64,000 nucleotides of DNA, taken from NCBI GenBank assembly GCA_044892505.1, contig CM097882.1, positions 75,082,001 through 75,146,000 of the forward strand. Direction: 5' to 3'. Positions 5,215 through 46,908 of the stretch are shown here, one piece after another. The notes beneath the pieces were generated by a model. It did not search any database, was not told where the DNA came from, and worked only from the letters and a program-made list of their open reading frames with translations. The first letter of the stretch is position 1. The number at the start of each line of letters is the position of its first letter. Source of the stretch: Schmidtea nova. Lineage: Eukaryota. The position numbers were made by a program, and so were the translations under genes.

Positions 5215-5222
5215 AGTCACCA

Positions 5223-8578: not shown

Positions 8579-8581
8579 TTA

Positions 8582-27073: not shown

Positions 27074-28523
27074 TCAAGGGTTCCAAAAAACATTGGAGAT
27101 TACTGTGTCAATTAGAATTAAATTTATGTGCACAACAGTGGGTAAAGAGCGCATATGGATCAATCTGCCTAACTCTTGCTTGGAGACCTGATATTTCCCC
27201 GACATTGTGCTAGCTCTATCATATGACTGACCAAAACACATAGTTATTGACAAATCCAAGTTTTCAATTGCTGAAACAAGAACGTTGAACAAATCTTGGA
27301 CACTTGCTCCAGGTAATTCACTGAATTTTATAAACCTCTCTACTGCATCGCCATTTTCTGTTACATATCTCAAAGATAAAGAAAACTGGTCAATGCTACT
27401 TATATCAATAGTTGAGTCAACAATCACTGCAAAATACTTAGCTACTTTGATTTCATCCACAATTTTTGATAGAATCTGAGATAATATGGATTGTATCAGA
27501 TCATTTTGTATATCGGGACTGAGATATGTTGCATTTCGATCACTCAGTAATAAATGTTGTTCCAATATTGCATCATTTTTAGCCAACAGTTTAATCAGTT
27601 CCAAGAAATTCCCTTCGTTTGTCACTGGTGAACCTAAGCCTTGATACTCACGATGGCCACGGAATGTCAATCCTTGTTTTCCAAAAAACAGTACAGCATC
27701 AATGATACATTTAAAAATCATCCTATTTTTTCTATTTCTTTCTTTTCTGTTGTCAGAAGACCAGACAACACAGTTCTATCGTTAAACAACCGGAATTTTG
27801 TCAGAAATAGTTCTTTCTCTGCTTTTTTGTGACTTTCGCTACTTTCATGTTTTTTCAATTTTGTACGTGCCTTTAGCAAAATTCTTGCAGCCAATTTTTG
27901 GATCACTCCAAATATCGGATCGACTAGCAAAAAGCCAACAAGCAAAACAAATCATTATATTAGCTTTTGGTGAGTAGACCAGCCAATGTCTATCAATTTC
28001 ACGACAACCTTTTACTTGTTTCTTCTTATACCAATTAGCACTGAAATGACGTTCAGTTTCATCTTTTGGGAAATTTTCAAATTTATCTTTAAGACCCGGC
28101 TAACTCAAGTAGTGCACGAACAAGTTCTGGCGTCACAGGTTTGTCACAAAACAGATGTGGATCTGTTGAGTATTCCATGTTTGGATCAATAACTGCACGA
28201 AGTCTTATTCTTACTGTGTCATCTTCATCCTCCACCATAGAGTCTGTTGACGTAATCAGGCCTACTGTTGAATCAGAACCCACTTCCTGAACAGTCACGG
28301 CAGCCGGAGTTGTGGTGTTGTTATCAACTCCTAGATTTGTTGTGAATTCTTCTTCTGGTGCCGCAGACGTTGTTGTATTGCTGAATGAAAAATATGCATC
28401 CAATTTTGCATATTTTGAAGATTCTCTTTCACGATCTTCGACTTCTTTTTTCCTCTTTTTATCCCATCCAGATGGTCCAGACCGTTTCTTTCTTTCAGTG
28501 TTATTTTCCATTAAATTTTCCAA
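27074..28523 (-). pseudogene. hAT transposase N-terminal half (ZMYM1-like)
   Basis: NEGNFLELIKLLA, YLSPDIQNDLI, FAVIVDSTIDIS, GQSYDRASTMSG, HCCAH; truncated just after the HCxxH motif. Confidence 0.85.
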
Positions 28524-29679
28524 AAAAATCGGTTTCTAGGTCACAAATCACAATATTTAATTTTCAATTAATTTAATTGATTAATATTTTTATTTTGTTA
28601 TAAACAGCAGACGATGATTATAATAAACAAATAACATTATGGTCAATGAAATATATAATCTTTGGTTTGTCTTTATGAGCAAAGACATTAAATTATAAGA
28701 CGTCAATTCTCCCAACAATCTTGCAACAGATGATAAATCAGTTTGACTCTAAGATAAACTTACTAGTTTCCAGTTGAGAATTTGGTACTTGGATAAGGAA
28801 ATGTTAGACTATCGAATTTATGGACGGAGTGAACACAGTTTTTAACTTTTTATGTTATTTAAACGATTGAAATAAATAAATACAGCTTTGTGACTTGCAA
28901 AATTGGAAATTGAAATTATTGAATAAAGTATGTTTTATTCTTGAAAAGGCCCCACTTTTTGAAAAATGGTCTCAGGGGGAGCGGCTGCTCCCCCTGCTCC
29001 CNNNNNNNNNNNNNNNNNNNNNNNNNNNNNNNNNNNNNNNNNNNNNNNNNNNNNNNNNNNNNNNNNNNNNNNNNNNNNNNNNNNNNNNNNNNNNNNNNNN
29101 NNNNNNNNNNNNNNNNNNNNNNNNNNNNNNNNATCGCAAAAAACAAAATAATAAAAAATACATGAAATAAAATTTAACTTGTTGCTAATATTTAGCCGGA
29201 ACACAAACAAATCCTAAGCGTTTTTTAGCCAAGACACAAACTAACATTAAAAAAATTTTCGCCTGCGGTGCTTTAACTTTTTTGCCCGGGGCGCTGAAAA
29301 CCATAGGGCCGGTCCTGAGTGTAACTTATTCTTTTAAGAAATTCTTTTCTGTATAATAATGGTTTTTACTTTTTACAAGGTTCAACAGATAAAATAATTG
29401 TATATCCCTGTCAATTTAACCAATTAATCATGTTTATTCAGACTTATTTTTAATTTCAATATATATATATATATAAGATGAAAATTATCTACTTAAAAGA
29501 ATTTTTTTTTCTTTAATTTAATGTAAAATTTTGATATTATTTAACTATTCAAGTGTGACGATACAGCCGTAGATTTGGAGAAATTTTATCTAGTTCGAGT
29601 GGCTGTTTTTAGGTGCTATCCAAACAAATTTTAACTACCCTGTTGCAGGGAATACTTTTTAAATGGAATCTTATACTGG

Positions 29680-30034
29680 TGTTAGGATCAGGCCTTTGGC
29701 CTTAACGTTTTGAGGTTTTAATAATAGTAATAATAAATTACTAAAAATAATTAAAATAAAATAAAAATAATTTAAAAACAATTGTAAAACAAATATAGAA
29801 ATAAACATTTACTAAAAATAGAACCAGGCCTTTGTCTGGTAATTGCTAGAACACATTGGACTATAATCGGCAATTATTTATCAACAAAATCGACGTAGGT
29901 CGATTTAATTTTAGTATAAATAATATTGAATTTCAGTTCAGAGGGGACGACGAGACGAATAGAAAAACAACGTGTGAGAGAAAAATAATTAATTTAGAGT
30001 GAACATTGATCGATAACCTACCGCATCGAAAGTT

Positions 30035-30069
<35 letters not shown>

Positions 30070-30675
30070 GGAGAGAACTGTTAATATTTTTGGGAGAAAA
30101 AGAAAGAGCAAAGAAACAGAAAGGAGGAAAAGAATAACATTGTTTTGAAAAGAAGTAATTTTTTAAATTGGTCTAAAAACGTTTATAAAGTAGAGAGTGA
30201 AAGATAAATTTATCTTTTTGGGTTGAAAAATCATTTTAGTTGATATTAATTTTTAAAGCGAATACAAAGTAAAGAAGAATTACTTTAGTATTCTCTGGGT
30301 GCCCCAAAATCATTCCGCTTGCTTATCCACTCTTGTAAAAATATTTCTTAGCGATCGTTGTGTTACTGAGGTGCCAACGATTTCTTGCAGACTGTCACAA
30401 ACAGTAGGGATTAATTTAATCCGAGATCTTTATTGTTCTGTACATCGATAAATTTTGTGAATAATTTAATTATTGTTTTGTAAATTGGTTAAATAAAATT
30501 TGAAAAGAATAGTTAGTTTTCATTTACAGATTTTACCTGTCTTTAAAATACACGCAACCACATTAATTTTGTTATATTTATATTTATTCATTTATTTATA
30601 TATAACAACTTATATAGATATAAAATAGGAGTCAATTTGTGTTAAGATCAGCACCCCTATCTTTTGATCTTGACA
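29680..30675 (+). repeat. 5' LTR (996 bp)
   Basis: TGTTAGGATC...TCTTGACA, with internal (TA)n. Confidence 0.97.
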
Positions 30676-30678
30676 TTT

Positions 30679-30696
30679 TGGTGAGCCCGACGTGAT
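30679..30696 (+). promoter_or_regulatory. Primer-binding site, tRNA-Trp-type
   Basis: TGGTGAGCCCGACGTGAT; one mismatch to the complement of the animal tRNA-Trp 3' end (TGGTGACCCCGACGTGAT). Confidence 0.85.
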
Positions 30697-30809
30697 CATT
30701 TTTCGGGGGATATAAAAATATTATTTATCAGAAACAGTTTTCTTTTTAAATCATTGAGTTAAGAAATAGGAGAATAAATTTTAGACCAGGAAATAGAAAT
30801 CAACAGATA

Positions 30810-33800
30810 ATGGCAGACATAAATAATTTACAAAATGATAATAATTTACAAAATAATGTCAATAATAATAATGTGCCAGTAGCTCAACCACCAGCGGTAG
30901 ATTTTATGAGATACCCAACAATACCAATTAAACCATTTAGTGGGAACCCAGGAGAGTTTCCAGAATTTATGTCCGAATATTTTCAGTTAGCCAGAGCATT
31001 AGGTTTCCCTGAACCGGTAATGATTTTGAGATTACCTTTATATCTAAAAGGGATGGCGCGTGAAATATATAATGATGTTATTATAGCCGAGCATCCAGCT
31101 GAATGGAATGTATTACGGTTAGCGTTACAAAATAGAATATTACCGGGGGATGCAACCAGAGTGCTAAGACAACAATTTTATAATAGGAGACAGAATTTGG
31201 GTGAGCATGTTGGGGAATTTTCTTATCAAATATTAATGTTGGCAGAGAGAGCTTTTGGCGATAGGGCAGCTTGGAATGAGGCAACCAGAGCGTTAGTAAA
31301 AGACCAGTTTTGGTCAGGGTTATCGTCCGCAATGAGAAACGCACTCAGTTTACATATAGGGGATAATTTAGAGGAATTAACTCGTAAAGCTTGCTTAATT
31401 GAAAGTAGTATAGAGAAGTTAAATAATTTCGCAATTAGTACCAATAAGTCCGACATTGAGTGTTTTAACTGTCATAAAAAAGGCCACATATCTAAAGATT
31501 GTAGGAGTAGGAATAATCCCATAGGGGAAAAATCATGTACCAAATGCGGGAGAAACAATCATGTGGCGGCAAACTGCAGATTTTCGGACTTGAGTTGTGA
31601 GAAATGTAAACGCAAGGGACATGTAGCGTCAGTGTGTAAAGTTAGGTTTGGGGAGACTACCTCTAGTAATAATTTTAATAATAATAGAAATAGAAGCCCC
31701 GATAGAAATTTTCAGAATAATAATAATAATAAAAATTTTCAGAATAAGAGTAATAATTTTTCAAATAATAATATAAAGAGGGATGAAGTGAATTCGGGGG
31801 GTAAAATTAAATGTCATACGTGTGGAAAATTTGGTCATATTATGCGTTCATGTCCACAAAATCAGTTGAGTAATAACAATAACAGTAATAACAATAATAG
31901 TAATAGTCGACCGAAACAGACTACGTTTACAGTGAATTCTGATCACAAATTAACATATTTACAGCAGCTTGAATTAGAAATTCAAGAAGAGAGAAATAGG
32001 TTAGCCAGGCTAACGACAAATGAAATCGATGAATACGGCGAAGATGAAGCCGAGGTGTATATGTTGTCAGCCAGAAAAGGGCGCAACAAAGATAATAATA
32101 AACAGAGTAAATTAAGTAATGATATTGTAGCAGAACTTGAGGTATTGATGCTTCAAGAGAGTCCACAGGAGGACCAAGAGGAAAAGGCTATGGTCGTAGA
32201 ACCAGAGGCTTGTGAGGGTTTACCGGTTTCACCCAGGAAAAATCGAGTGGCTATGGTCACAGAACCAGAGGCCAACAGGGAAATAGAAGGTTTACCGGTT
32301 TCACCTAGTAAAAATCGTAAAGCCATGGACATAGATCCAGTGGCAAATAGAGGATATCCAAAAGAAGTTTTGGAAAAACGATGGGCTTCGGTCAGTGAGC
32401 CGGAAGTCTTAATAACCACATCATCCCTGAGAAATGATGGTGGCAGCAAACCGATAAAAGTTAGAGAGGCATCGAAAGAGGAAGGTAATCCCATCGATGA
32501 TTGTAAAATGCTATTACGTCATAGGAACGTATGGCAAAGAGAAATAGAACAGAGGCTAGAAAATATCAGATTAAACCCCATTAACGAGAATGAGGTAGAT
32601 AAAATAATGGATATCATATTAGAATTAAATAGAAATGATGAGTACCATCCGGTATTAAGAGAAATCCTGCGAAGCATAGGATTAAGTTGGAAGCAAAAAG
32701 GAGATCTAGAAGATTCCATAGTTTTTGTTGTCCTACCCAGAGGTTGTTTTTGTAGATATACAATAAACCCAAGAGAAAAAGTCGAAGCACTAGCCAAGAA
32801 AGTCGCTGAGGTAAAACCTCGATTGAAATGCGAACTATATTTGTTGGGAGAAAGATTATTGGAGGGAGAAGCCTTACTAGATTGTGGTATAATACCAGGA
32901 AAACAAATGATAGTAAAAGCAAAGTTTCACAAGGAAACTGTCACGATAGTGGACTCTGATAATGTCCTAACCATAACGGAAATGGAAATTGAACAATTAA
33001 ATCAAATATCAGCGGTACCACAAAGGTTGGGGACAGAGCTGATGCAAAACCCGAGGGACGGGGAAACCATTAAGATGATAATGGATTGGATATTGGAGTT
33101 ACGAATTCCAGTAGATACTCTTAGAGAGGTTATGCCATTGGTGGTGCCTTTATTGAAAGAAACATCACCATTCCAAACGCAAGCAAAGATGCTAGTAATC
33201 AAAAATGGGCATGCTATTAGACACCAGGATAATAGGCAAGGTCCAGTCATGTTAGATATCAGGATACCCAGGAGAGGACACCTGATACAACAATTTTCGT
33301 GTTTCCATAAAGTCAAGAAACTGAGGAAACGAGTGGCGACAATAGTAAAAGAGTCATTTATAATAATGATACACGGTTGTCAGGTTGATGACGACGAATA
33401 TTTAGTGGATGTAGGATGTTTTCCTCAAGAGGAAACTATAGTATTGATACTATTGGTCGAGCTTCCAGAGGACCAATGGGCAACACTGAGATTGCCAGAT
33501 GATGCTGAGTTAGAGAAGGATGAGATCCCTCCCGAGCAGCAACAAGCAGGTGAAGATACCCGCCTACAGGCAGGAGAAACAGTAGATTTAGACGCGGAAA
33601 TAGACAAATATTTACGGGAATTCGACAACACTGAGGATCAGTTGATCGAGATAATGCCATCTTTGGAAGATGAAAGTATAAGATTGAATCAAAAAGAAAC
33701 GAACATCGGAGCTAGTACGTCACAGGGAATTGGGCCATCAAGAGATAGGATGAGCCCGAAACTTGTTGTAAACAGGAGAAAGAAGGAGAGAAGGGGGAGA

Positions 33801-36800
33801 CCGAGAAAGAGTCAAATGAACCCGCCTCCAAGAGAACTCCTAAGGCCTACCACGATACAAAGCGTAAACAGGCAGGCTTTGGCAGGGATAGCCAGCCAAA
33901 TTGATAAAGGCACAAGAGATTTTAGTGCTAAAACGGAAACATGGAGGAGATTGAACCAAATATTAAGACTGATGAAGCCTGAGTGGCAAATCAAGAAAGA
34001 TAAAGCTATAAATGTTGAGAAAATTACAAACAAGATTAAACAAGCAATGAATAAGATTCCAGGAAGCACAACTGAACAGGAATTGTTCGAAGTAGCAGGA
34101 CAATTCATGCAAGAAGGGTTGACAAAAGGGAAAATGATAACAATTTTAGCACTAATGTTTAAAAACACCGTAATAATACTCAAGGATGATCCATCAGGAA
34201 TTCAAGTAGCCTTAGACAGGCTGACTGATATCATTGAAGTGAATTTTGAAACATGGATGACGGAACATAAGTTTTGGGAGACAAAAGAAACGAAAGGGAA
34301 ATATGAGATAAATGAGGAATTGTTGACAGAACATATCCCAAGTAATTCGCGGGGAACAGGTGGATTCACTAATTGGATGATGATGTTATTAGTAATGATG
34401 GGAATATTGAGACAGACAAACTCCTTAACAGCATACGACTGTAGCGAACCGATATTAGCACGGATTTACTCATTGGTAGACACAGTGGAATGCAAGGAAG
34501 CATATCCAGATAAAGTTGCAAAACGAGAGGATGCAGAATACCATGTTTATCAGCAAACAGAGTTTTATAGGACCAGGGTGAGGGAATGTCGAATACAGAG
34601 AGCGACATTTGAATATTACTGTGGATCACACAGTTATACAGCGTTTCTAGGAGCTAAGCTCATTCCAGTACCATTGATAATCCCACCAGAGGATTGCATA
34701 AATGCTTTTAGATCAAAAAATGTCAAAATAGATGACGAAGTGACAATCACAGCAGAGGAAGGAAAGAAGCTGGGTATAACGATTACCAGAGGAGGACCGA
34801 TAGCAGATGATGGTTCTTGCACCGGTAGAAAGAAATTAAGAGGTTCTAATATTGTGAGTTATGTAGTAACAGTTGAGGATTACACTGTAGAGCTAATAGA
34901 ATACGAAGGAACATTTGAAGTATCCACGGGTAAAATGATGTCCCATCCTGAATGTAATGTAAAGTTTGGGTATTGTAAAACCAGTACAGCGGTACTGACG
35001 TATCAATCAATGAGAGAATTTTGCGATTTGGGATACTTGAAAAAAGTAGTGTTTTCAAGACTTGATGGGAAAAGTTTTGCAGCACAAGAGTCACACCAAA
35101 GCGGGTGGGGAGATAAGATAAACCACAAGACGAAAAAAGAGAAAGTACCCGAGAAAAGCACAGCAGTAGTTTTAGTCGCAAAAGATCCTACCGATGCTAT
35201 CCGACTAGTTAGAAAGAAGCAGATAACAAAATGTGGTGTGCCAATATTCGAAACGAACTATAAAGGAATATTCTTAGCATACAAATATGTGCCGGCAGCA
35301 GAAACATTACATTTGTCAGATATAAAAATAGCGAAATATATCAATAATAAAATTGACTTTTTGTATCATGATTTACAGAAGCAACTATTAGACGTTTACC
35401 AGGAAGTGATCTTAAACGATTGTCGTTTAAACAGGGAAATAATACGAAATAGATTAGCAACATCTATTTCGAACCCTGATTTAGTAATGCCAATGTTAAC
35501 CGAGGAGGGAACATTTGGTAGAATTTTGGGAGAAGCAATTTATAGCTATCAATGCAAAGCGGTGGAGGTAGAAATAACCAAATACGATCAATGCACTTTA
35601 GAGCTTCCAGTAAAATATAAAGGAAAATTAAGATTTATGATACCAGTATCACATCAGTTGATGGGAGAAGAGGCAACTCCATTGAAGACAATTTGTAATC
35701 CGGCAATGTCACCACTATACAAAATTAACAATATATGGATTTCCTTACCAGACAGGAAACCACCTTCTAAACCAGTAGAAGTGTTGCAGGCTACTAAATT
35801 AGAAAACAAAATGGAGTTTCGACCATTAAATGAGATGTCAAAAGGGGGAGTATATACTCAAGAAGATATTGAGGAAGCGAGGAGAGCAATAGTGTTTCCT
35901 CAAATCAGAGATAGAGGAGTGACAGAGATAATAACTAGAATTTATCAATCATACGACGGAAAACCGGACTATAATTTATTATTTGGACCGGAACACTACA
36001 AGCAAGCCGCATCAAATGTGATACGGAGAATCTGGGGAAGATTCACAAGCTTCGGAATTTTTGTAGCAGGATGTTCAGGCATATACGCCATAGTGATGAT
36101 ATTGAAAATAATCATATCACAATTATTTTCCACATATAGTATCTTCAAGATCGGAGGATGGTCTTGGAAGTTGCTATTGGGAATGTGCCCACTTTGTGCA
36201 GATTTCGCAGTATTTCATCATCACAATAAAGAAATCAAGAAAATGAAAAGACAAAATGAAACAAAGCACGAAATAATAAAGTATGAATATAGTCATCGAG
36301 ACGATGACAATTCTGACGAGGGAGGTAACCTAGAGGGCGACAAGACCTCATATAACACCTCAACAAAACCAGACAACAAAAAACCGAATTTTCAAAATTT
36401 TGAAACTAGTACTTTTCAACAGTACCCTGTTAAAACAAAAAGACGAAAACAACAGGAATGGCCTGTGAAATATGTGTCTCCATATGAAACTAGGAGAAAG
36501 ATAATACCAGAAAAAGTAGAAGAGGAGATGTTGAGGCGTTTCGATTTTAGGACAAACGCAGGTATTTCAGCACCTCCTATACATTCAGAGTATCACATGA
36601 ATTTCGAGACAATGCCACCTTTGGGAACATCGATATTGGAAACGGTACCAAAATATCCATTTAGCACGTTAGAGAGGCTAAAGGAAAATTATCAAGATGA
36701 AATAAAATCGGAAGACGACAGAGATAGCGAGAATCAACAGAAATTCAGAGATAATATTCGAGGAATATCAACAGTGTTTATGGTAAATTCCAGCAAAAAG

Positions 36801-39800
36801 ACGCACAAGCCTACAATTAAATTAAAGGTTAATAGGCATACGGTTCATGCCATTATCGATTCAGGTTCAGACGTAACGCTGGTCGAAGCAAATTTATTAA
36901 ATGAAAAAGAATTACAAGCAATAATACAGACATTAACTATTACATCAGGAGCAAATGGTCAGCCAATCAATGTTATCGGGACATTAGATTGTGAGCTAAG
37001 GCTATGTGATCAGAAATTTAGACACGATATCAAGGTCACCAGACAGTGTATGGCAGAATGTATCGTGGGAATGGATATATTAAAAAAGTTAAAAGATATA
37101 GTATTTGATTGTGCAACAGGCGAATTGGTAAAAATGACGGGTAGAAAACGGAAAACATACAGTGTTGATGTAGTTTTTCTGGATAGATCAGTGAAAATAC
37201 CACCAAGAACCGAAACAGTTTGTTTTGTAGCAACACACCAAGAGGTCGAGGGAGATGTTATTTTCGAACCCAGTGAGCAGTTCATGAACAGATATAAAAC
37301 ACCTATGGTGCAGAATTTGGCAACAGTACGGGGAGGAAGAATCCCAATTAGATTAACGAATCTAGCGAATAAATCATTGAGGTTGTACCCAGAGACGAGA
37401 GTGGGTAAAGTGATACAACTTTCCAATCCTAGGAAAGAGTCGGAATCAACATTATCGGTGAGTGAGGAGGAACGAGATCCCGATATTGAATATTACGATG
37501 CACCTAGTTGTGATAGTAAAACGTTAACGAGAAAAGAGAATATTAGAGTTAATCAATTATTACGAAGATATGATCAAGTTTTTGCAAAGCACGAATATGA
37601 CTTAGGGCAAGTTAATATTTTAGAGCATGAGATTAAACTAACAGAGAGTAAACCAATAAAGATACGTCCGTATAGAATACCTCAAAGTATACAAGGGTCC
37701 GTGGATAAACAAATAAAATTAATGCAAAAGTATAATATAATCAGACCAAGTAAATCTCCATATTCTTCACCCTTGGTGGTTGTAGCTAAGAGAGATGGTT
37801 CCGTTAGATTGTGTAATGACTATAGGAAATTAAATGAACAAACTGTGAGTGATAATCACCCACTACCTTTGTTAGATTATATATATGATAAAATGAAAAA
37901 TTCGAAACTGTTTACTGTGATGGATGCACAGAAAGGATTCTATCAAATAAAAATGAGCGAAGACTCAATTCCTATGACAGGATTTTCGACTAGTAGTGAT
38001 CATTTTGAATATTTAGTAATGCCATTTGGACTAAAAGGAGCACCTCCAACTTTTCAGAGGGCTATGAATATTATGCTGATGGATGCACATCACGCAATGG
38101 TATATATTGACGACATTATCATTTTCTCGGAAGATTTAGATAAGCATTTAGAACATCTTGAGGATATTTTTAAACGGTTAATCATGGCAAACTTGAAAGT
38201 TAAACCAAGTAAATGCAAGTGGGCAGAATCGGAGGTGATTTACGTAGGGCATGTAATATCACACGATTGCGTAAGACCAGACCCGGCTAACACGGATAAA
38301 GTAAAGAATTTCCCACAACCAGTGAACGTGAAACAAATTAAAGGATTTCTAGGGTTGACGGGATATTATAGAAAATTTATTAGGAATTTCTCTGCAATCG
38401 CCTTTCCTTTGACCACGTTAGAAAAGAAAGGAGTAAAATTTTTATGGGGAGAGGATCAGCAGCAAGCATTTGATAAGTTGAAAGATGCATTATGCAAACC
38501 TCCAATCTTACGATTTCCAGATTTTAAAAGACAATTCATGGTGATGACAGATGCATGCACAAGAGGTATAGGTGCAGTATTGGGACAGAAAGATGAAATA
38601 GGTGATGAATACGCAGTAGCATACGCAAGTCGTGGGTTAAAGCCACACGAAAAAAGTTACGCAGTGATAGAATTAGAAGCACTGGCGTTAGTATTTGCAG
38701 TGGAAAAATTTAGTCATTACCTATGGGGCAGAAAGGTAATTTTCTATACCGATCATAGACCATTGCAATGGCTGTTAAAACATAGGGATGAAGCGTCAAA
38801 ATTGGTAAGATGGGCATTGAGATTACAGCCCTATAATATTGAGATTGTTTATCGAAAAGGAAAAGCCAATGGAAATGCAGACGCATTATCTCGGATGGAA
38901 CAAGAACCGGAGGTCGAAGATGTAAAGGAAGGAAGACTTGAAGGAACTATCTTCATGTTAACAAGAGAAGCAAATACGATAACGGACTTGGTAGAGGCGC
39001 AGAAAAGTGATGACGAGATCAACATGATCAGACAAGCAATCGAAGCAAAAGCTATACCAAGCGAATTTCAAAAATATTGGGAAAAACATAAGGATAAATT
39101 TATCCTAGAGGAAGGATTAATTAAATATGCGGAGACAAGAGATAATGTAATATTAGTGCCAAAGAAGTATAGAGAATCGTTGTTATTACAATATCACGAC
39201 GGAGCACTGGGAGGACATCTCTCAGCAAGACATACATTGTCTAGATTGAAAACAAAATATTTCTGGCCAGATATGAAAGAGGATGTAAAGAAGTGGTGCC
39301 AAACGTGTAAAATATGCATGACAAGGAGGAACACAGGTAAGAAACCTCATGTACCTCTAAAACCTATGCCAGTACCATCCTCGCCGATGGAGATGACTGC
39401 TATGGATGTACTGGGGCCGTTTAAAGAATCAATGATGGGAAATAAATTTATACTAGTCTTCTGTGACTACTTAACGAAGTGGCCGGAAGCATTTCCGATT
39501 CCAAACCATAAAGCCGACACAATTGCCAGAATATTTGTCGAGCAGATTGTATTTAGGTATAGAGTTCCATCAAAACTGCTTACCGACAGAGGGAAGGATT
39601 TTATGAGCAATTTGCTAAAAAGCATAAATGATTATTTTGGGATATTAAAGCTGAACACCTCACCATATCACCCACAAACGGATGGATTGGTGGATAGGTT
39701 CAATGGAACTTTGGCAAATATGTTATCATCATATGTGAACTCAGGACAGACGGATTGGGATGTGCATATACCGTCATGTTTGTTTGCTTATAGGAATGCA

Positions 39801-40328
39801 GTACATTCAGTTACAGGAGAAACACCTTTTTATCTAATGTACTTAAGGCATAGCAAGATGCCAGTGGATCTCATATTTTATCCAAAGGCTTCGCAAAATT
39901 GTGACGAAGGGAATTATTTATTTGAAATGAGAGAGAGAATGCAGGAAGCTTGGGAGAAAGCAGGCTTAAAAATTCGTTATAACCAGGAAACTATGAAAGA
40001 ATACCATGACCGTAAAGCAAAGGAGCATGGATTCTTAGTAGGAGATTATGTCATGTTAGAGGGACATTATAATAAAAAGGGTTTGTCCCCGAAACTTATG
40101 AGGAATTACAAAGGGCCAGATCAAATATTAAAGGCCACAGAGACAAATTTGATTTTACAATCAGTAGCGAACAAGAAAGCAGAACCAATCATGGTTCATG
40201 CAAACAGATGCAAAAAGATAGCTCCACCGGAAAAAGAAAAGCCAAAATCAGAAATAGATGAATTCGAAATAGATAAGAAATCAAAAAAGAAAACTTTGGA
40301 ATCATATAAAAGTATCCTAAAGGGTTAA
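30810..40328 (+). CDS. 3172-aa polyprotein: Gag-4xCCHC-2x(helical+Ubl)-AT-hook-Bcl-2-like-signal anchor-chuvirus-type glycoprotein-TM-PR-dUTPase-like-RT-RNase H-IN
   Basis: Uninterrupted ORF. Knuckles 31461-31853; Ubl 32718-32930 and 33246-33458; RRGRPRK 33789-33809; Bcl-2-like 33867-34280; signal 34374-34424; glycoprotein 34425-36215; IIDSGS (D at 36858); YIDD (38103); TDACTRG and YTDHRPL; integrase HHCC and D-D(35)-D. Confidence 0.95.
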   Translation: MADINNLQNDNNLQNNVNNNNVPVAQPPAVDFMRYPTIPIKPFSGNPGEFPEFMSEYFQLARALGFPEPVMILRLPLYLKGMAREIYNDVIIAEHPAEWNVLRLALQNRILPGDATRVLRQQFYNRRQNLGEHVGEFSYQILMLAERAFGDRAAWNEATRALVKDQFWSGLSSAMRNALSLHIGDNLEELTRKACLIESSIEKLNNFAISTNKSDIECFNCHKKGHISKDCRSRNNPIGEKSCTKCGRNNHVAANCRFSDLSCEKCKRKGHVASVCKVRFGETTSSNNFNNNRNRSPDRNFQNNNNNKNFQNKSNNFSNNNIKRDEVNSGGKIKCHTCGKFGHIMRSCPQNQLSNNNNSNNNNSNSRPKQTTFTVNSDHKLTYLQQLELEIQEERNRLARLTTNEIDEYGEDEAEVYMLSARKGRNKDNNKQSKLSNDIVAELEVLMLQESPQEDQEEKAMVVEPEACEGLPVSPRKNRVAMVTEPEANREIEGLPVSPSKNRKAMDIDPVANRGYPKEVLEKRWASVSEPEVLITTSSLRNDGGSKPIKVREASKEEGNPIDDCKMLLRHRNVWQREIEQRLENIRLNPINENEVDKIMDIILELNRNDEYHPVLREILRSIGLSWKQKGDLEDSIVFVVLPRGCFCRYTINPREKVEALAKKVAEVKPRLKCELYLLGERLLEGEALLDCGIIPGKQMIVKAKFHKETVTIVDSDNVLTITEMEIEQLNQISAVPQRLGTELMQNPRDGETIKMIMDWILELRIPVDTLREVMPLVVPLLKETSPFQTQAKMLVIKNGHAIRHQDNRQGPVMLDIRIPRRGHLIQQFSCFHKVKKLRKRVATIVKESFIIMIHGCQVDDDEYLVDVGCFPQEETIVLILLVELPEDQWATLRLPDDAELEKDEIPPEQQQAGEDTRLQAGETVDLDAEIDKYLREFDNTEDQLIEIMPSLEDESIRLNQKETNIGASTSQGIGPSRDRMSPKLVVNRRKKERRGRPRKSQMNPPPRELLRPTTIQSVNRQALAGIASQIDKGTRDFSAKTETWRRLNQILRLMKPEWQIKKDKAINVEKITNKIKQAMNKIPGSTTEQELFEVAGQFMQEGLTKGKMITILALMFKNTVIILKDDPSGIQVALDRLTDIIEVNFETWMTEHKFWETKETKGKYEINEELLTEHIPSNSRGTGGFTNWMMMLLVMMGILRQTNSLTAYDCSEPILARIYSLVDTVECKEAYPDKVAKREDAEYHVYQQTEFYRTRVRECRIQRATFEYYCGSHSYTAFLGAKLIPVPLIIPPEDCINAFRSKNVKIDDEVTITAEEGKKLGITITRGGPIADDGSCTGRKKLRGSNIVSYVVTVEDYTVELIEYEGTFEVSTGKMMSHPECNVKFGYCKTSTAVLTYQSMREFCDLGYLKKVVFSRLDGKSFAAQESHQSGWGDKINHKTKKEKVPEKSTAVVLVAKDPTDAIRLVRKKQITKCGVPIFETNYKGIFLAYKYVPAAETLHLSDIKIAKYINNKIDFLYHDLQKQLLDVYQEVILNDCRLNREIIRNRLATSISNPDLVMPMLTEEGTFGRILGEAIYSYQCKAVEVEITKYDQCTLELPVKYKGKLRFMIPVSHQLMGEEATPLKTICNPAMSPLYKINNIWISLPDRKPPSKPVEVLQATKLENKMEFRPLNEMSKGGVYTQEDIEEARRAIVFPQIRDRGVTEIITRIYQSYDGKPDYNLLFGPEHYKQAASNVIRRIWGRFTSFGIFVAGCSGIYAIVMILKIIISQLFSTYSIFKIGGWSWKLLLGMCPLCADFAVFHHHNKEIKKMKRQNETKHEIIKYEYSHRDDDNSDEGGNLEGDKTSYNTSTKPDNKKPNFQNFETSTFQQYPVKTKRRKQQEWPVKYVSPYETRRKIIPEKVEEEMLRRFDFRTNAGISAPPIHSEYHMNFETMPPLGTSILETVPKYPFSTLERLKENYQDEIKSEDDRDSENQQKFRDNIRGISTVFMVNSSKKTHKPTIKLKVNRHTVHAIIDSGSDVTLVEANLLNEKELQAIIQTLTITSGANGQPINVIGTLDCELRLCDQKFRHDIKVTRQCMAECIVGMDILKKLKDIVFDCATGELVKMTGRKRKTYSVDVVFLDRSVKIPPRTETVCFVATHQEVEGDVIFEPSEQFMNRYKTPMVQNLATVRGGRIPIRLTNLANKSLRLYPETRVGKVIQLSNPRKESESTLSVSEEERDPDIEYYDAPSCDSKTLTRKENIRVNQLLRRYDQVFAKHEYDLGQVNILEHEIKLTESKPIKIRPYRIPQSIQGSVDKQIKLMQKYNIIRPSKSPYSSPLVVVAKRDGSVRLCNDYRKLNEQTVSDNHPLPLLDYIYDKMKNSKLFTVMDAQKGFYQIKMSEDSIPMTGFSTSSDHFEYLVMPFGLKGAPPTFQRAMNIMLMDAHHAMVYIDDIIIFSEDLDKHLEHLEDIFKRLIMANLKVKPSKCKWAESEVIYVGHVISHDCVRPDPANTDKVKNFPQPVNVKQIKGFLGLTGYYRKFIRNFSAIAFPLTTLEKKGVKFLWGEDQQQAFDKLKDALCKPPILRFPDFKRQFMVMTDACTRGIGAVLGQKDEIGDEYAVAYASRGLKPHEKSYAVIELEALALVFAVEKFSHYLWGRKVIFYTDHRPLQWLLKHRDEASKLVRWALRLQPYNIEIVYRKGKANGNADALSRMEQEPEVEDVKEGRLEGTIFMLTREANTITDLVEAQKSDDEINMIRQAIEAKAIPSEFQKYWEKHKDKFILEEGLIKYAETRDNVILVPKKYRESLLLQYHDGALGGHLSARHTLSRLKTKYFWPDMKEDVKKWCQTCKICMTRRNTGKKPHVPLKPMPVPSSPMEMTAMDVLGPFKESMMGNKFILVFCDYLTKWPEAFPIPNHKADTIARIFVEQIVFRYRVPSKLLTDRGKDFMSNLLKSINDYFGILKLNTSPYHPQTDGLVDRFNGTLANMLSSYVNSGQTDWDVHIPSCLFAYRNAVHSVTGETPFYLMYLRHSKMPVDLIFYPKASQNCDEGNYLFEMRERMQEAWEKAGLKIRYNQETMKEYHDRKAKEHGFLVGDYVMLEGHYNKKGLSPKLMRNYKGPDQILKATETNLILQSVANKKAEPIMVHANRCKKIAPPEKEKPKSEIDEFEIDKKSKKKTLESYKSILKG

Positions 40329-41318
40329 CCAGAACGATACCCTTTACGATCTAGACAAATTCCCAAAACGGTTACATTTTTAACTGTAATCAGTTGTGTT
40401 ATGATGTTGGGTCAAGCATTTGAGAAGTTTGTACCAAAGTCAAGTCAACATCCTGATATCGAATATCATCGAACGGATAGGGCATTCAGATTTTATTTAA
40501 AAAATATAGAATGGCATCGTTACGATTTATATTTGACAACCCCTGAGAAAGGAATATCTTTTCACTTAAACAAATGGGATAGAGTGAAAGAAATTGGAGG
40601 ACTAATGCCAAACACCGGATATCTTTTAGAAATAAAGACATTCTTTGCGGATCCAGACGTTTTTGCAGACGGAGGAAACTGTGATGACAAAGCGGGATGG
40701 ATTTTGAAAACAGCAATATTCACGGAAAAAGTAGAGATTTCTTATCAGGAACAAACGGTAAAATTCACGCATGAATACTGGATGAAAAATAACAGAATTT
40801 TGCTTATATATATATTAGAAAATATGAAAAGAGTTAAAAGATTGGTACTCAACCAATCATATCAAGTTCGGAAATGGACAATACAACCAAAAATGAATAC
40901 AAAAGCCAATATAACATACTTGGAGTTTTCGGAGACGGGGAAAATTGGTTGGTACACAGTACATCATGAACTAGTAGATCTGGTACCACGTGAATGGAAC
41001 AAACCAACTAGCAAGAAAGGGAGAGCTAGATTAGTGAATATTCCTGGGTGTAAAGGAATAAGCGAAACAGATTTGAGAAACCTAAGAAAGGTAGTGAGTG
41101 AAATGCAACCTCGCGTAAATAAACTTCTAACTAATTGCAGTTGCCAAAGAGAAACTAAGGGGATATTACAAGTTAAAATGCCAAATTGGCTATTTGTAGT
41201 TATAATAGGGGGAGTAACCAGTATGGTTTTAGCATTAGTTATAGCAACCCTTTGGATGTTTCGTTTAACTTTAAGGGACAAGCGATATTGGGAAAACTAT
41301 TATGAAACTGAGGTGTAA
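40329..41318 (+). CDS. ORF2: type I membrane glycoprotein with FN3-like ectodomain, in frame with pol after a single TAA (track start 40401)
   Basis: Signal-like VTFLTVISCVMMLGQA; IGGLMPNTGYLLEIKTF (FN3 GLxPxTxY motif); sequons NQS, NIT, NCS; TM WLFVVIIGGVTSMVLALVIATLWMF; tail ends YYETEV. Confidence 0.75.
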   Translation, partial: PERYPLRSRQIPKTVTFLTVISCVMMLGQAFEKFVPKSSQHPDIEYHRTDRAFRFYLKNIEWHRYDLYLTTPEKGISFHLNKWDRVKEIGGLMPNTGYLLEIKTFFADPDVFADGGNCDDKAGWILKTAIFTEKVEISYQEQTVKFTHEYWMKNNRILLIYILENMKRVKRLVLNQSYQVRKWTIQPKMNTKANITYLEFSETGKIGWYTVHHELVDLVPREWNKPTSKKGRARLVNIPGCKGISETDLRNLRKVVSEMQPRVNKLLTNCSCQRETKGILQVKMPNWLFVVIIGGVTSMVLALVIATLWMFRLTLRDKRYWENYYETEV

Positions 41319-41529
41319 GGGGAAAGTCTCACCAGAGAATAGGTAGTGTAAATATATATATATATAAATATTTATTTGATATTAGTATTTATAATTATGT
41401 AGATAAATAATGTGGGCTCAAAGGAGCAACTGTAAAATCAAACATCAGCGTATGTTGACTGGGTTTACCCTGGGAGGGTCTATCACGAAAGTGATAAAAG
41501 CTGTTAATTATTTTATTTTTAGATAAAAT

Positions 41530-42834
41530 ATGAACCTTAACGAAGAATCAAGAGTCCAGACAAAATCAAACAGAACACACCCAATGATTTCCTACAGTTC
41601 CCAAATGAAAAGCAATATAGAGGTATACAGTACATACAAAGAGGAGTATGTCTACAGGTTCATAGGAACCACGGTGGCGGCAAAGATGAACCATCTTACG
41701 TCAAATTATTGGTATTATCCAAGGAGAGTGGATATCCCAAACGATTACAAATTCCCTGGTGGACCCCAAAGGCAAATGATGGTGACGGTTGTAAACAACC
41801 AAGGAAGAATCAAAATAGCAGATTTATGTAGAGAGTATGGCTCATGTCCAAAGATAGAGAATATATGGCTCCATGCGATTAATCGAGCGATTACCGTGTT
41901 TATGGCTGGGATGGAACTACCAGTGGAACTAGGCAAGCATTGCACATTGGAGGTGTATCATGCCGATGGTAGGGAACGTAATATAATGTTACAAGCATCC
42001 GCAGCAAATACTATTATCGCGGTGGAAATATTGGATTTTAAGAAACCTTACCAGTTTGTGAATCGGAATGAGCCTACATGGATTTACAACGTTAACGAAG
42101 AAGATCTCCAGCAAAGTAGATCGTTCGTAAGAAGGAACATGACAAAAGAAGAAGAAGACGAAGCCACAGTTTTTGTATCAGCCGGATTTGCCAAGTCGAG
42201 GATAAATTTGAAAGAAACACTTATCCAGATAGCAATCCTGGATATAAGAGGAAATAATTTATTAAGTGCGGTAGTAACTCCCAAGGATCCAGTTAAGCAC
42301 TACCAGACGCACCAATATAAATTAAAAGAACAAGAAATCCGTGGAAATTTCGACGAGGATGATTGCCACCATTTAATACGAAAGATTTGCGACAAGAAAA
42401 TAGTTGTGGGCATTCTAGTAAAGGATTTACTCAAGGTAGCCAATCTACCAGTGCAGAGACTATTAGGCATCCGTGATTTATCTGCGAATAAATTATTAGA
42501 ATCCCGGGGAGTCCCTAAGATTCATGGGTATTATAGATTGGGATTTCTGACGAAGACATTTCTGCGTACAGTGCCGGGAGAACCAAGAAATTTGGTGGTT
42601 ACCAATGAGGCATTAGCAATTAGGGCTATATATCTACATATTAGAAATGAATGGCTAGACCATATTAGTGTGCCTCAGGTAGAAATTAGGACAACAACTA
42701 CGGTAGAGATAGTTGAACAGGAAGCTTTACAAAAGCAGACGTTACCCGAATTGCCATCTACATCGAAGCAACCCCATTTAAAGAGAAGGGAGAACATACC
42801 AGAAGATCTTCCACCACCCCAATTATATCGATAG
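41530..42834 (+). CDS. ORF3 (434 aa): unknown N-terminal half plus REX4/ISG20-like DEDDh exonuclease fold lacking catalytic acids
   Basis: 42163-42654 aligns by eye to REX4-family motifs: IAILDIRGNNLLSAVVTPKDPVKHYQT, KIVVG..DLLKV, IRDLS, EALAIRAIY..W. Confidence 0.75.
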   Translation: MNLNEESRVQTKSNRTHPMISYSSQMKSNIEVYSTYKEEYVYRFIGTTVAAKMNHLTSNYWYYPRRVDIPNDYKFPGGPQRQMMVTVVNNQGRIKIADLCREYGSCPKIENIWLHAINRAITVFMAGMELPVELGKHCTLEVYHADGRERNIMLQASAANTIIAVEILDFKKPYQFVNRNEPTWIYNVNEEDLQQSRSFVRRNMTKEEEDEATVFVSAGFAKSRINLKETLIQIAILDIRGNNLLSAVVTPKDPVKHYQTHQYKLKEQEIRGNFDEDDCHHLIRKICDKKIVVGILVKDLLKVANLPVQRLLGIRDLSANKLLESRGVPKIHGYYRLGFLTKTFLRTVPGEPRNLVVTNEALAIRAIYLHIRNEWLDHISVPQVEIRTTTTVEIVEQEALQKQTLPELPSTSKQPHLKRRENIPEDLPPPQLYR

Positions 42835-42965
42835 GTGAAGAAGATGAATATGAAACATGTACCAGCGAAGCAGAACAACTGCAACCATCTACCAGCGCTG
42901 CCTATCAGCGAAAGGGTGAGGCAAAAATCACGCCTAGTAAAGACAAACGGGAGACAGGCAAAGTC

Positions 42966-43598
42966 GTGGGAATCCTTAAGAAGATCATACCGGTAAAAAG
43001 AGACAAATCAAAGATGAAGTTGAAAAAGATAGTCAAACAACCAATCGAGAAGAATAAAGAATTACCCCAAAAGGAAAAAGAGAAAACAATAGCCGCTAAG
43101 AAAGTTTTTGCCGAAGGTGATGAGGATATAATGGAAGTCGATTTCCAACCTCCAATAAAGGAATTACAGGAGGAAATAAGGGTAAAGACAGAACCCGAAG
43201 TCCGGCAAAAGATGTTAAAAATCGCCAAAGAAAATATCATAAAGAAGCCTGTGTCAGTGGATGTTGATGGATTTGAACCAATGTGGTATAAACGCCCAGA
43301 CCCTTTATGGAAACCTAGAGCCAAAGACTATGACTGCCAAGCAGTCACAAGAATGGCCATAAATAACAACGAAAGATACGATGTATATGATGTGGATGGA
43401 ATACCTTATGTGGCATCATCGCTTATATTAACAAGCGCATTAGATGATAAAGTTATGGCAGTAAGCTTTGAGTTAGACACTCTTAAGAAAAGAAAACAAA
43501 TACTAAAAAGGCAGTACGCAATTGCTAACGGTTATAGCACAACAGAGGTACATCTGTACAAAGTTCCCGAGCCAGATCCCGATGACCTGGATGTCTAA
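42966..43598 (+). CDS. ORF4, orphan basic/acidic protein (first ATG 43014; frame open from 42717)
   Basis: Intact 210-codon frame inside the LTRs; no recognisable domain. Confidence 0.55.
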   Translation: MGILKKIIPVKRDKSKMKLKKIVKQPIEKNKELPQKEKEKTIAAKKVFAEGDEDIMEVDFQPPIKELQEEIRVKTEPEVRQKMLKIAKENIIKKPVSVDVDGFEPMWYKRPDPLWKPRAKDYDCQAVTRMAINNNERYDVYDVDGIPYVASSLILTSALDDKVMAVSFELDTLKKRKQILKRQYAIANGYSTTEVHLYKVPEPDPDDLDV

Positions 43599-43867
43599 TC
43601 AACACAAGTTGCCTATCAACAACGTCGCAAAGCAAGTAGTGTAGCTATAAAAGACTTGAATTTTTTTTCGTGACTTACCTAACAGTTTATATTTGATCTT
43701 GACTTTTAAAGTATCCTTTGACGTTTATTATATCCTTGTGGTGTACAAATATAAAAATGACTTTCAATCATTTATTAATTTATTTTATGATTTATTTTTA
43801 TGTGTTATGTAAATGCTGTTTGTGACAAGCAAAGTGTCTTATCTTGTTTTCGAGACGAAAATCTTTT

Positions 43868-43878
43868 AGGGGGTAAGA
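43868..43878 (+). promoter_or_regulatory. Polypurine tract
   Basis: AGGGGGTAAGA just before the 3' LTR. Confidence 0.75.
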
Positions 43879-43880
43879 CT

Positions 43881-44235
43881 TGTTAGGATCAGGCCTTTGG
43901 CCTTAACGTTTTGAGGTTTTAATAATAGTAATAATAAATTACTAAAAATAATTAAAATAAAATAAAAATAATTTAAAAACAATTGTAAAACAAATATAGA
44001 AATAAACATTTACTAAAAATAGAACCAGGCCTTTGTCTGGTAATTGCTAGAACACATTGGACTATAATCGGCAATTATTTATCAACAAAATCGACGTAGG
44101 TCGATTTAATTTTAGTATAAATAATATTGAATTTCAGTTCAGAGGGGACGACGAGACGAATAGAAAAACAACGTGTGAGAGAAAAATAATTAATTTAGAG
44201 TGAACATTGATCGATAACCTACCGCATCGAAAGTT

Positions 44236-44284
<49 letters not shown>

Positions 44285-44890
44285 GGAGAGAACTGTTAAT
44301 ATTTTTGGGAGAAAAAGAAAGAGCAAAGAAACAGAAAGGAGGAAAAGAATAACATTGTTTTGAAAAGAAGTAATTTTTTAAATTGGTCTAAAAACGTTTA
44401 TAAAGTAGAGAGTGAAAGATAAATTTATCTTTTTGGGTTGAAAAATCATTTTAGTTGATATTAATTTTTAAAGCGAATACAAAGTAAAGAAGAATTACTT
44501 TAGTATTCTCTGGGTGCCCCAAAATCATTCCGCTTGCTTATCCACTCTTGTAAAAATATTTCTTAGCGATCGTTGTGTTACTGAGGTGCCAACGATTTCT
44601 TGCAGACTGTCACAAACAGTAGGGATTAATTTAATCCGAGATCTTTATTGTTCTGTACATCGATAAATTTTGTGAATAATTTAATTATTGTTTTGTAAAT
44701 TGGTTAAATAAAATTTGAAAAGAATAGTTAGTTTTCATTTACAGATTTTACCTGTCTTTAAAATACACGCAACCACATTAATTTTGTTATATTTATATTT
44801 ATTCATTTATTTATATATAACAACTTATATAGATATAAAATAGGAGTCAATTTGTGTTAAGATCAGCACCCCCATCTTTTGATCTTGACA
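43881..44890 (+). repeat. 3' LTR (1010 bp)
   Basis: Same as the 5' LTR apart from a (TA)n tract 14 nt longer and one T>C near the end. Confidence 0.97.
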
Positions 44891-45146
44891 CTGGGTTTTT
44901 GTTGTTTTCAATGCTTATATTTGTACAGCTTAGCAAGAGTTAATTGATTTATTTTTTAAACTTTGATATATTCTAATTGCTGATAAAATTACGCAGAGAT
45001 CATTAGCGAAAATCTCGCTACAGATAAAATATATCTTAATAAATGATATGGAAAAAAGTATCCTTTCATGCATTTAATTTTACTGAACATTGGTTAACTG
45101 TATTTTGTTAATTTTACGTAAATTGATTTATTATATGTTTGAATAA

Positions 45147-46908
45147 TAGGATGGCCCTTAAAAATTAAAGTTTGAAATCATCTTCTGGCACCCCTCCAAT
45201 GTATTTCACTTACAGAAATAAAATTATGTACAAAAAATCTTGCGAATTGGACAATATTTAGAGGTGGCCCTCCAGCTTTGAAGTTTTACCAAATCCGTTA
45301 AATTTAAATAAAGTTGTGAAACTTGTTTCGCGTGTTGTATAATATGCTGTATTGTAGCTATGCATGTATTAACAATAACTTATAGAGTTAGACACCTTCT
45401 TACTTATTACAGCATCATCTAATACCGCATCTAATACTGGTCATCGTTCAGGAGCATGTTCTCTGATCGAGCACAAACTAAACAAATATCTTCTATTCCT
45501 GGCCTGTCGTCACCACGTTATGGAGCTAATTGTCGGGGCAGCATTTGATAAGACTTCGATTGGCACTTCAACAGGACCAAACATTCTCATATTCAAGCGG
45601 TTCCACGATCAATGGTCATTCATAGACCGTTACAGCTTTCAGGTTGCTTCATCGGACCCATCTTTTGAGTTACTAGTTGCTCCATATCGTTCTGATATCC
45701 TGAGTTTTGCCAGAACATATTTGCAAGCTGAACAGCCAAGAGATGACTACAGAGAATTCCTTGAGCTTGCAGTCATATTTCTTGGCACTGTTCCTGAACG
45801 TGGAATTCGCTTTCAAATACCTGGCGCAATGCATTGGGCACGATGGATGGCAAAAGTCCTCTATTCCATCAAAATGTGGCTTTTTCGCAGTCAGTTCAAG
45901 ATGACTGCTTCAGAAGAGCGTGGTATTTGTAATGTCGCCATCTTTTCCGTTATCATCCACCTCAAAGCATGGATGACTGCGCCACTGGCTGTTGAAGCAC
46001 CTCTGAATGACTTCAAGCTTATGGGACAACTTCAGCAAGAAACTTGGTCTACATTTGTGGTATCTGTCCGAGGAGCTCATTGGTCTGGCTCTGTTTGACT
46101 CCAGATTATCGCATGACTCAAAGAGACTGATGATTGCCGCGATGGACGAAGAAGCTCCGGATCATCCATCGAAGCGACCCAGCATAAAGTCTGGTGCATT
46201 CCTGGGAAAACACGGTTTGGAGCAGTTCTGTACATCAAACTCCAAGAAACTGTTCCAGTTGCTTGATCTGCCCGAAGCACTGCTCGACAAGGATCCATCA
46301 GACTGGGAACAGGATGAGTCGTACACACGAGTACTAGGCATTGTCAATAGCTTGGCGGTTGTCAACGACAGAGCCGAGCGTGGAGTTGCTCTCATTCAGG
46401 ATTACAACAAAAAATTGACCAAAAATGAAGATCAACTCCAGTTTCTTCTTCAAATTGTGAATGAACACAGGCGACAATTCCCTGACTGTACCAAACGAAT
46501 CCTAGCGAATTGTACTAGTACTGGTGAACAATTGGACACTGCGAAATAATAGTAATACGGATGAACAGTTGGCAGTCTGGCAGAGACATAATTCTTAACC
46601 TTTGCACTTTGCAGTTTGAGTTATTTCTGAATTAGTGATATTACAGTAAACTGAACTTTTACAAGCTGTTGTGTGTGACTGTGCGTGGAATAAATGTGAA
46701 CTAAACAAGAAAACTGTAGCAATTTAACATTGCAAGCTTCAAATAGTGGTACTTACAAAACTTAAACACTCGAGGGCCACCTCTAAATATTGTCCAATCG
46801 TAATGATTTTTTGCACAATTCATTATTTCTATATTTGGCACAGATTGGATTTGGGCCAGACTTGAAATTATGACTTCAATTTTTTGCTATGTGCTAAGGG
46901 CCACCCTA
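45147..46908 (+). mobile_element. Internally deleted hAT-superfamily (hATm-like) DNA transposon
   Basis: TIRs TAGGATGGCCCTTA / TAAGGGCCACCCTA; second inverted pair ATTGGACAATATTTAGAGGTGGCCCTC (about 45247-45273 and 46772-46798); no clean TSD seen. Confidence 0.8.
45421..46549 (+). pseudogene. hATm-like transposase C-terminal portion, frameshifted near 46030
   Basis: TASNTG..GAC, LACRHHVMELI, PGAMHWARWMAK, VVNDRAERGVALIQDYN. Confidence 0.8.

Follow-up and report, generated by a model that had tools for sequence, protein, structure and literature searches.

A chuvirus-type glycoprotein, predicted to be gB-like, set in frame between the Gag and protease domains of a multi-copy Ty3/gypsy-type element of Schmidtea nova, and a predicted membrane protein encoded after its integrase

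The main text of PMC13524379 describes GAG-ENV-POL gB-type errantiviruses from Platyhelminthes, Nematoda and Bryozoa, six of them from Schmidtea mediterranea, and calls the entry of such gB-carrying errantiviruses unknown because herpes gB needs partner glycoproteins. It also cites nematode endogenous retroviruses in which env precedes pol in a gypsy-type element (Sacco et al. 2022, as cited in PMC13524379). In planarians, the Burro elements, reported in 2019, carry env in frame between a BCL2-like domain and the protease, and this env matches mononegavirus glycoproteins (PMC6431247, excerpted text). The initial annotation of the sequence studied here had presented an in-frame glycoprotein (G) between Gag and Pol as a surprise; this layout is already in print (PMC6431247, PMC13524379).

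The window analyzed is a stretch of 64,000 nucleotides of the Schmidtea nova genome (assembly GCA_044892505.1, contig CM097882.1, positions 75,082,001 to 75,146,000 of the forward strand). It contains an LTR element at 29680-44890 (15.2 kb), which sequence reading and Pfam matches place as Ty3/gypsy-type. We give a probability of roughly 0.7 to the reading that G serves as env in a GAG-ENV-POL Ty3/gypsy-type element that has multiplied recently. In frame with Gag and Pol and predicted to fold like gB, G probably enters the ER by way of an internal signal, is probably cut free by the host signal peptidase, and probably acts as the fusogen through which particles or cells would pass the element on. 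The ends of the element are the following:

29676-29679 (left) and 44891-44894 (right): target-site duplication CTGG, 4 bp
29680-30675, + strand: 5' LTR with TG...CA termini
30679-30696, + strand: primer-binding site, complementing the 3' 18 nt of host tRNA-Trp(CCA), CCA end included
43868-43878, + strand: purine-rich tract ahead of the 3' LTR, read from the sequence
43881-44890, + strand: 3' LTR

The two LTRs are one mismatch and one 14-nt indel (in a TA run) apart, and the primer-binding site matches the host tRNA-Trp gene at 18/18 positions when compared by eye. LTRs, target-site duplication, tRNA primer-binding site and the order PR-RT-RH-IN, as expected of a Ty3/gypsy-type element, are all present, while no BEL-type Pfam family was matched in the element, where the Pfam matches are RVT_1, RT_RNaseH and Integrase_H2C2. 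In the host genome, 78 of the 81 scored matches to G show at least 95% identity over the matched part, giving at least 78 near-identical copies, and 35 of the 81 lie in stop-free frames of at least 3,400 codons; these counts are lower bounds, 81 of 3,721 candidates having been scored. Multiple near-identical intact copies, a trait of gB-type errantiviruses, are therefore present, and two further families of the S. nova genome have frames near 3,400 codons with the same layout.

The stop-free frame of the window copy spans 30750-40328 (3,192 codons) and, together with a second reading frame downstream, holds the following features outside G:

30810-40328, + strand: single ORF from the first ATG, Gag-UBL-UBL-Bcl-2-like-signal-G-TM-PR-RT-RH-IN
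30810-31870, + strand: Gag, whose four CCHC zinc knuckles match zf-CCHC in 4 stretches (E 8.9e-12)
32715-32924, + strand: ubiquitin-like domain 1 (8-copy profile: UHRF1 UBL E 1.4e-4, polyubiquitin E 1.7e-4)
33246-33461, + strand: ubiquitin-like domain 2 (alignment and 8-copy profile as for domain 1)
33942-34289, + strand: BH1/BH2-like half of a Bcl-2-like domain, its end about 30 residues upstream of the internal signal
36804-37094, + strand: aspartic protease (DSG; RVP E 5.5e-7)
37152-37448, + strand: conserved PR-RT spacer domain, 22-30% identical to relatives, where Burro has a dUTPase-like domain
37785-38834, + strand: reverse transcriptase (YIDD) and RNase H (RVT_1 E 4.7e-31, RT_RNaseH E 7e-35)
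39156-39674, + strand: integrase zinc-binding and core domains (Integrase_H2C2 E 9.9e-20, rve E 7.9e-7)
41410-43598, + strand: ORF2, about 730 codons in a sibling copy, with a 3'-5' exonuclease-like domain

The Gag assignment is in agreement with Retrotrans_gag matches of the homologous Gag in two other families (E 7e-8 and 1e-6). For ubiquitin-like domain 1, the single-sequence match to Pfam ubiquitin is weak (E 0.14). The Bcl-2-like domain is placed by Atlas at 0.92 to Bcl-2 and poxviral Bcl-2-like clusters, an assignment flagged as weak with a low recognition score; its profile reaches Bax at E 0.0045, with Bcl-2-family chains in 60 of the 60 rows shown. Pfam Bcl-2 is matched in three relatives at E 0.001-0.007, under the curated cut-off, the same region of the window copy gives no Pfam match, and some relatives are without the domain. 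The PR-RT spacer has no informative Pfam match and none to dUTPase. A stretch R-G-T-G-G-F just before the internal signal, which we take to resemble dUTPase motif 5, was dropped as a candidate for that motif, being not kept in relatives. In the window copy ORF2 is interrupted twice, by a stop ahead of 41527 and by a frameshift at about 42.8 kb; its acidic catalytic motifs look degenerate by eye in the family of the window element, and the homolog of another family matches ISG20L2 at E 1.9e-7.

The placement of G in frame between Gag and protease, as first annotated, was borne out: it lies at 34374-36215, between the CCHC knuckles and the aspartic protease. Of the 13 top long homologs scanned, 9 have the same order, with G upstream of protease or RT domains, and the other four give no protease match. 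G is divided as follows:

34374-36215, + strand: chuvirus-type glycoprotein G, whole (PF24664)
34374-34424, + strand: internal signal-peptide-like segment (hydropathy and alignment)
34425-36035, + strand: G ectodomain, chuvirus-type class III (gB-like), with 14 Cys and 0 sequons
36036-36146, + strand: membrane-proximal region and TM helix of G (19-residue hydropathy peak 2.27)
36147-36215, + strand: conserved W-x-L-x-L-G-x-C-P segment, weakly hydrophobic (peak 1.24)

All motifs originally listed for G are found in the translation, and its counts of 14 Cys and 19 Asn in the ectodomain are correct. The chuvirus-type identity proposed there is upheld by the Pfam family PF24664 (Monjiviricetes_fusion), matched with 269 bits against a curated cut-off of 27 (E 6.5e-80). 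A search of 1.84 billion representatives found 1,165 relatives of G at E<=0.001. Long proteins with 37-38% identity rank first, ahead of stand-alone proteins of about 650 aa with 21-28%. A word-based homolog search with G scored none among proteins of near length.

Kinship with gB, the other part of the proposed identity, was examined by profile and by fold. A single-sequence search of the PDB gave 0 matches, whereas a 119-sequence G profile (of 151) found herpes gB in 33 of 36 PDB rows, with a best E of 0.0054. The AlphaFold model of the ectodomain, built with a 143-row alignment, has a pLDDT of 90.9, a pTM of 0.73 and a long central helix at 301-348; a single-sequence fold (pLDDT 35) was set aside. 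Foldseek matched the model to herpes gB in 39 of the 39 PDB rows listed, with a best E of 1.5e-13, TM of 0.25-0.46 and 9-12% identity, and among viral models chuvirus-like G was best (E 1e-36, TM up to 0.75). The 14 cysteines and the class III fold are kept across lineages less than 40% identical, and by hydropathy and alignment the signal segment, 14-Cys ectodomain and C-terminal TM of chuvirus G are all present. That G is chuvirus-type with a class III fold is, as a prediction from these models and profiles, secure.

A hydrophobic segment ahead of the AYDC start was seen in 15 of the 15 embedded copies examined. The small -3/-1 rule, together with an alignment to the starts of stand-alone Gs, predicts a signal-peptidase site after T-N-S, which would give a mature start L-T-A-Y-D-C; the signal and topology assignments rest on hydropathy and alignment. 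The segment in the window opens with three Met codons, and this is where a different expression mode has to be weighed, in which G would come from a separate message, spliced or initiated internally, that starts at the Met run, while Gag-Pol skips or ignores G. Such a message would suit these three codons and the Met near the hydrophobic core in 8 of the 15 embedded copies, and in all four copies compared a YAG lies 3-7 nt ahead of the ORF2 start codon. However, the other 7 of the 15 have no Met at or just before the core, many copies, and three families, keep an open frame to either side of G, and no acceptor-like splice site was found before the Met codons in any of the three families, by a crude scan whose 0.6 pyrimidine rule misses ORF2 too in 3 of 4 copies. 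We consider a separate G message quite unlikely, and a polyprotein with alternating membrane topology, inferred from sequence, to be the best reading. The topology first suggested, a polyprotein made with no splicing, is thereby favored by the internal signal and the missing acceptor-like sites, whereas cleavage, translocation and the absence of splicing stay predictions.

In this polyprotein, Gag-UBL-UBL-Bcl-2-like would be synthesized in the cytosol and held at the membrane via the cleaved signal of G. Bcl-2 proteins usually have a tail anchor in the place that this signal occupies, about 30 residues past the BH2-like motif, and the cleaved G signal could double as tail anchor for the Bcl-2-like domain. 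The G ectodomain would enter the lumen, with the TM helix of G acting as stop-transfer. Because one strong TM follows G and then only the weaker W-x-L-x-L-G-x-C-P segment, which we infer to be a cytosolic amphipathic helix, Pol would return to the cytosol. There PR-RT-RH-IN would stay tethered to the G tail until the element protease frees Pol and matures Gag, so that the host signal peptidase would make the cuts on the lumenal side and the element protease those on the cytosolic side. In uninterrupted copies a second signal after integrase would export a further protein, here called module 2, as a type I glycoprotein with a PDZ-type tail end. All products would be equal in number at one membrane, so that Pol might be packaged by co-location and not by frameshift. 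Equal Gag and Pol is an odd ratio for an enveloped particle, and some unseen control may therefore exist. The initial annotation had given the product set as Gag:G:Pol at 1:1:1, which is incomplete, as it overlooked module 2 after integrase and the UBL and Bcl-2-like domains before G; because the frame normally runs past integrase in the family of the window element, the set would be Gag:G:Pol:module 2.

The lack of N-x-S/T sequons in G had been called unusual for a viral fusogen. The count itself is right, with no sequon among the 19 Asn of the window ectodomain and likewise 0 in 30 of 30 sibling copies, but "unusual" does not hold, since 11.7% of 20,000 shuffles of the ectodomain are sequon-free (P 0.12). 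Sequons are present in 42 of the 42 homologous ectodomains scored, 11 embedded ones having 1-4 and 31 others 2-6, and each of five diverged copies in the S. nova genome has 1-2. The env of Smed_errantivirus_4 has its N-G-T sequon in the same place as two of these diverged copies, a place where the window copy has none. The argument that a G without sequons is not lumenal was rejected, the absence being at chance level and the diverged copies and Smed_errantivirus_4 having one; the loss of sequons is recent, concerns this family as a whole, and does not speak against export.

To judge whether G is maintained, substitutions were counted at two depths. Among 29 siblings, G shows 140 synonymous versus 17 non-synonymous variant types over 342 and 1,269 sites, a comparison biased against non-synonymous changes, as the siblings are the best protein-level matches. 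Between two other families, a figure free of this bias, dN is 0.09 with dS near saturation (pS 0.73). Such strong purifying selection means that G is maintained and is no idle insertion. As far as substitution patterns can, it shows that replicating lineages need G, and speaks to that need and not to membrane fusion; selection on G during the recent copying burst is evidence on function.

In a tree of 46 full-length ectodomains, midpoint-rooted, with partial matches left out and no named references (no Anakin), a branch with support 99/96 separates the 15 embedded Gs from the rest. A DUF5641-linked homolog, P0089, with its G behind a BEL-type domain, falls outside this clade, a placement that fits separate histories of the Gag-G-Pol and BEL-linked Gs. 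A G phylogeny had been proposed at the outset as the check on single versus independent capture: the embedded clade is supported, and a single origin of the embedded Gs fits without being proven, because the tree rows were chosen by similarity to the query and include no named references.

These results bear on a rival origin, in which G would be an endogenous viral element, inserted recently from a chuvirus, idle and in frame by accident, or else an assembly chimera. Chuvirus G copies often land in retroelements (PMC7642597, excerpted text), and the window copy has lesions elsewhere. Against such an accident stand dozens of copies with open frames, a layout common to three families and to unrelated assemblies, the strong purifying selection on G, and the grouping of embedded Gs in one supported clade. 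An idle insertion or chimera is highly improbable, and on the sequence evidence of copy number, homolog layout and selection we regard it as already refuted.

Beyond the integrase, the frame of Gag-G-Pol continues into module 2:

40326-40328, + strand: stop codon dividing integrase from module 2 in the window copy, private to few copies
40329-41318, + strand: module 2, in the frame of Gag-G-Pol, 329 codons beyond the stop
about 40368-40418, + strand: module 2 signal-like segment
within module 2, + strand: YPLRS motif
about 41187-41261, + strand: module 2 TM helix, followed by an 18-residue tail ending E-T-E-V

Of 68 full-length module 2 matches, 33 fall in open frames of at least 3,400 codons (a whole frame of about 3,520-3,550 codons), and only 3, the window copy among them, in frames of 350 codons or less. 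The stop at 40326 was considered as a programmed read-through site and rejected, most copies having no stop there. The ectodomain is beta-rich with 3 sequons, and the paired hydrophobic segments recur in three S. nova families and in 3 of 3 homologs that reach well past integrase (P0001, P0006 and P0014). All six genomic copies compared, which represent four lineages, end module 2 in E-T-E-V, E-T-F-V or L-T-A-L, presumably class I PDZ-type ends; among the three outside homologs only P0006 has a similar end. Pfam gave nothing informative for module 2, a word-based homolog search with its alignment scored none among proteins of near length, and its sole PDB profile match, MxiG, was rejected at E 0.5. 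Atlas relates it to FN3 proteins at 0.82-0.87, which is a lead only. Between two families its protein diverges about three times faster than G (dN 0.30 vs 0.09), a speed that might fit a host-facing protein. No description of module 2 was found in the literature searched; one may exist in Repbase, in the Burro paper of 2018, in the paper on Burro1 function, in figures or in subscription papers. Module 2 is apparently undescribed and predicted to span the membrane, and it may help the likely fusogen spread the element between cells.

How the exported proteins would be used can be read in more than one way. G could be exported for something other than infectious particles, either cell-to-cell transfer at contacts or mainly a membrane scaffold for Gag/Pol assembly. 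No particles are known for such elements, whose entry mechanism is called unknown in the main text of PMC13524379, and the PDZ-type end in 6 of 6 module 2 copies suggests targeting to junctions or polarity scaffolds; on the other hand, 14 cysteines and a whole class III fold kept at less than 40% identity exceed the needs of a scaffold, and we hold a purely non-particle role to be unlikely. An extension of the preferred reading, in which G is a fusogen, is a two-protein entry machine from one polyprotein with four membrane-insertion signals. Here the gB-like fusogen would act with a fast-evolving, FN3-like module 2 that chooses the target cell or docks at junctions via its PDZ-type tail, comparable to gD/gH for herpes gB, while the G signal would serve as tail anchor of a Bcl-2-like death inhibitor. 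This proposal is tentative and, as a whole, on the improbable side. If true, attachment and fusion would be split between two proteins of one retroelement, and the question of how gB-only errantiviruses enter cells would have an answer. Module 2 is in any event a concrete candidate partner of G, encoded in the same frame, and the idea that it aids the fusogen in attachment or by targeting junctions is an open lead.

Among the systems compared, chuvirus G and herpes gB share with the window G a family profile, the 14-cysteine pattern and the predicted fold, but stand-alone homologs are about 20-25% identical to the window G, which is embedded in a retroelement polyprotein. The nematode elements of Sacco and colleagues come from nematode hosts and are said to have one continuous gag-env-pro-pol ORF. 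The mosquito element Anakin likewise combines a glycoprotein of the chuvirus-type family with an LTR element, but on a BEL/Pao backbone (PMC7642597, excerpted text), whereas the window element has no match to a BEL-type Pfam family.

The likeness to Burro/GYPSM1 is closer, extending to one polyprotein with Gag, CCHC, ubiquitin/SUMO-like and BCL2-like domains, env and PR-RT-RH-IN (PMC6431247, excerpted text), and the order Gag-CCHC, ubiquitin-like, BCL2-like, in-frame env and PR is that of the window element. Burro, however, exceeds 30 kb with an ORF of 4,873-5,140 aa, against 15.2 kb and about 3,520-3,550 codons with module 2 here. It also has MATH, BIR and ankyrin domains, for which six segments scanned in the window element gave no Pfam match at E<=1, and the excerpted text names no membrane protein after its integrase, whereas the window family has module 2 (PMC6431247).

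The gB-type errantiviruses of PMC13524379 have in common with the window element a Ty3/gypsy Pol, a gB-type env before Pol, multiple copies and a size of about 15 kb, and in the window element, too, the gB-type env follows gag and precedes pol, with signal/TM before it and TM after it. Its G aligns without gaps to the env of Smed_errantivirus_4, with 158 of 252 residues identical (63%, hand count), although the latter has the N-G-T sequon that the window G is without and belongs to a separate element family copy set. The main text of PMC13524379 makes no mention of a polyprotein, a single ORF, Bcl, fibronectin or Burro, so that it does not deal with topology, with the Bcl-2/UBL cargo or with module 2. 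From its sequence, the window element would work like Burro but departs from it in size and cargo, and by domains and order we file it with the GAG-ENV-POL gB-type errantiviruses. The in-frame G thus adds one more family to a published layout, and the remaining interest lies in module 2.

A second signal-ectodomain-TM module (module 2) was present downstream of the integrase in all the element families examined. Its positions, and those of the exonuclease-like reading frame ORF2, are listed below for the window and for loci of the host genome (L032 to L041, in local coordinates):

window 40329-41318, module 2, 3' of integrase
L032:1500-2789, module 2 counterpart, 3' of integrase
L034:2238-3536, module 2 counterpart, 3' of integrase
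L037:3495-4397, module 2 counterpart, 3' of integrase
L041:4897-6180, module 2 counterpart, 3' of integrase
window 41410-43598, ORF2, DEDDh-type exonuclease domain
L032:3186-4634, ORF2 counterpart, DEDDh-type exonuclease domain

The C-terminal residues of module 2 are ETEV, ETFV or LTAL (6/6 copies), which we take to be a class I PDZ-type end, against a background of 2% of positions. An FN3-like fold is a candidate for module 2, to be taken as a lead only. The ORF2 exonuclease domain looks degenerate in the family of the window element and intact in another family, where it matches ISG20L2 (E 1.9e-7). A YAG lies 3-7 nt 5' of the ORF2 start codon in four of four copies.

The primer tRNA of the window element is tRNA-Trp(CCA) encoded by a tandem gene array with a period of ~282 bp, which begins at ~128,022,000 of host sequence C3 (L043-L045). 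The tRNA-Trp T-arm pattern has 1,955 matches genome-wide, all on the same strand, and the first 100 matches listed all fall within this array.

Within the Gag-UBL1 linker of the element there is an in-frame 72-bp duplication (window 32214-32350), and one sibling copy has a linker ~22 codons longer. Other features of the window are:

3003-9568, second gypsy-type element without env, LTRs ~966 bp
256-879, tandem repeat, period ~208 bp
51253-51656, tandem repeat, period ~200 bp

The LTRs of the env-less element are 99.4% identical and carry an internal tandem repeat of 80 bp. In this element gag overlaps pol in a different frame, and the integrase part contains one stop. ORF fragments at 17191-17733, 27074-27775 and 45379-46549 (minus strand) resemble DNA-transposase remnants.

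The layout of the G-bearing window element recurs in at least two further young families of the host genome, with open frames of ~3,400 codons and a glycoprotein G ~40% identical to that of the window. Among the long protein homologs of G, P0001, P0002, P0003, P0004, P0008 and P0013 carry two to four tandem protease-like domains behind G, and P0001 has one additional protease-like domain 3' of integrase.
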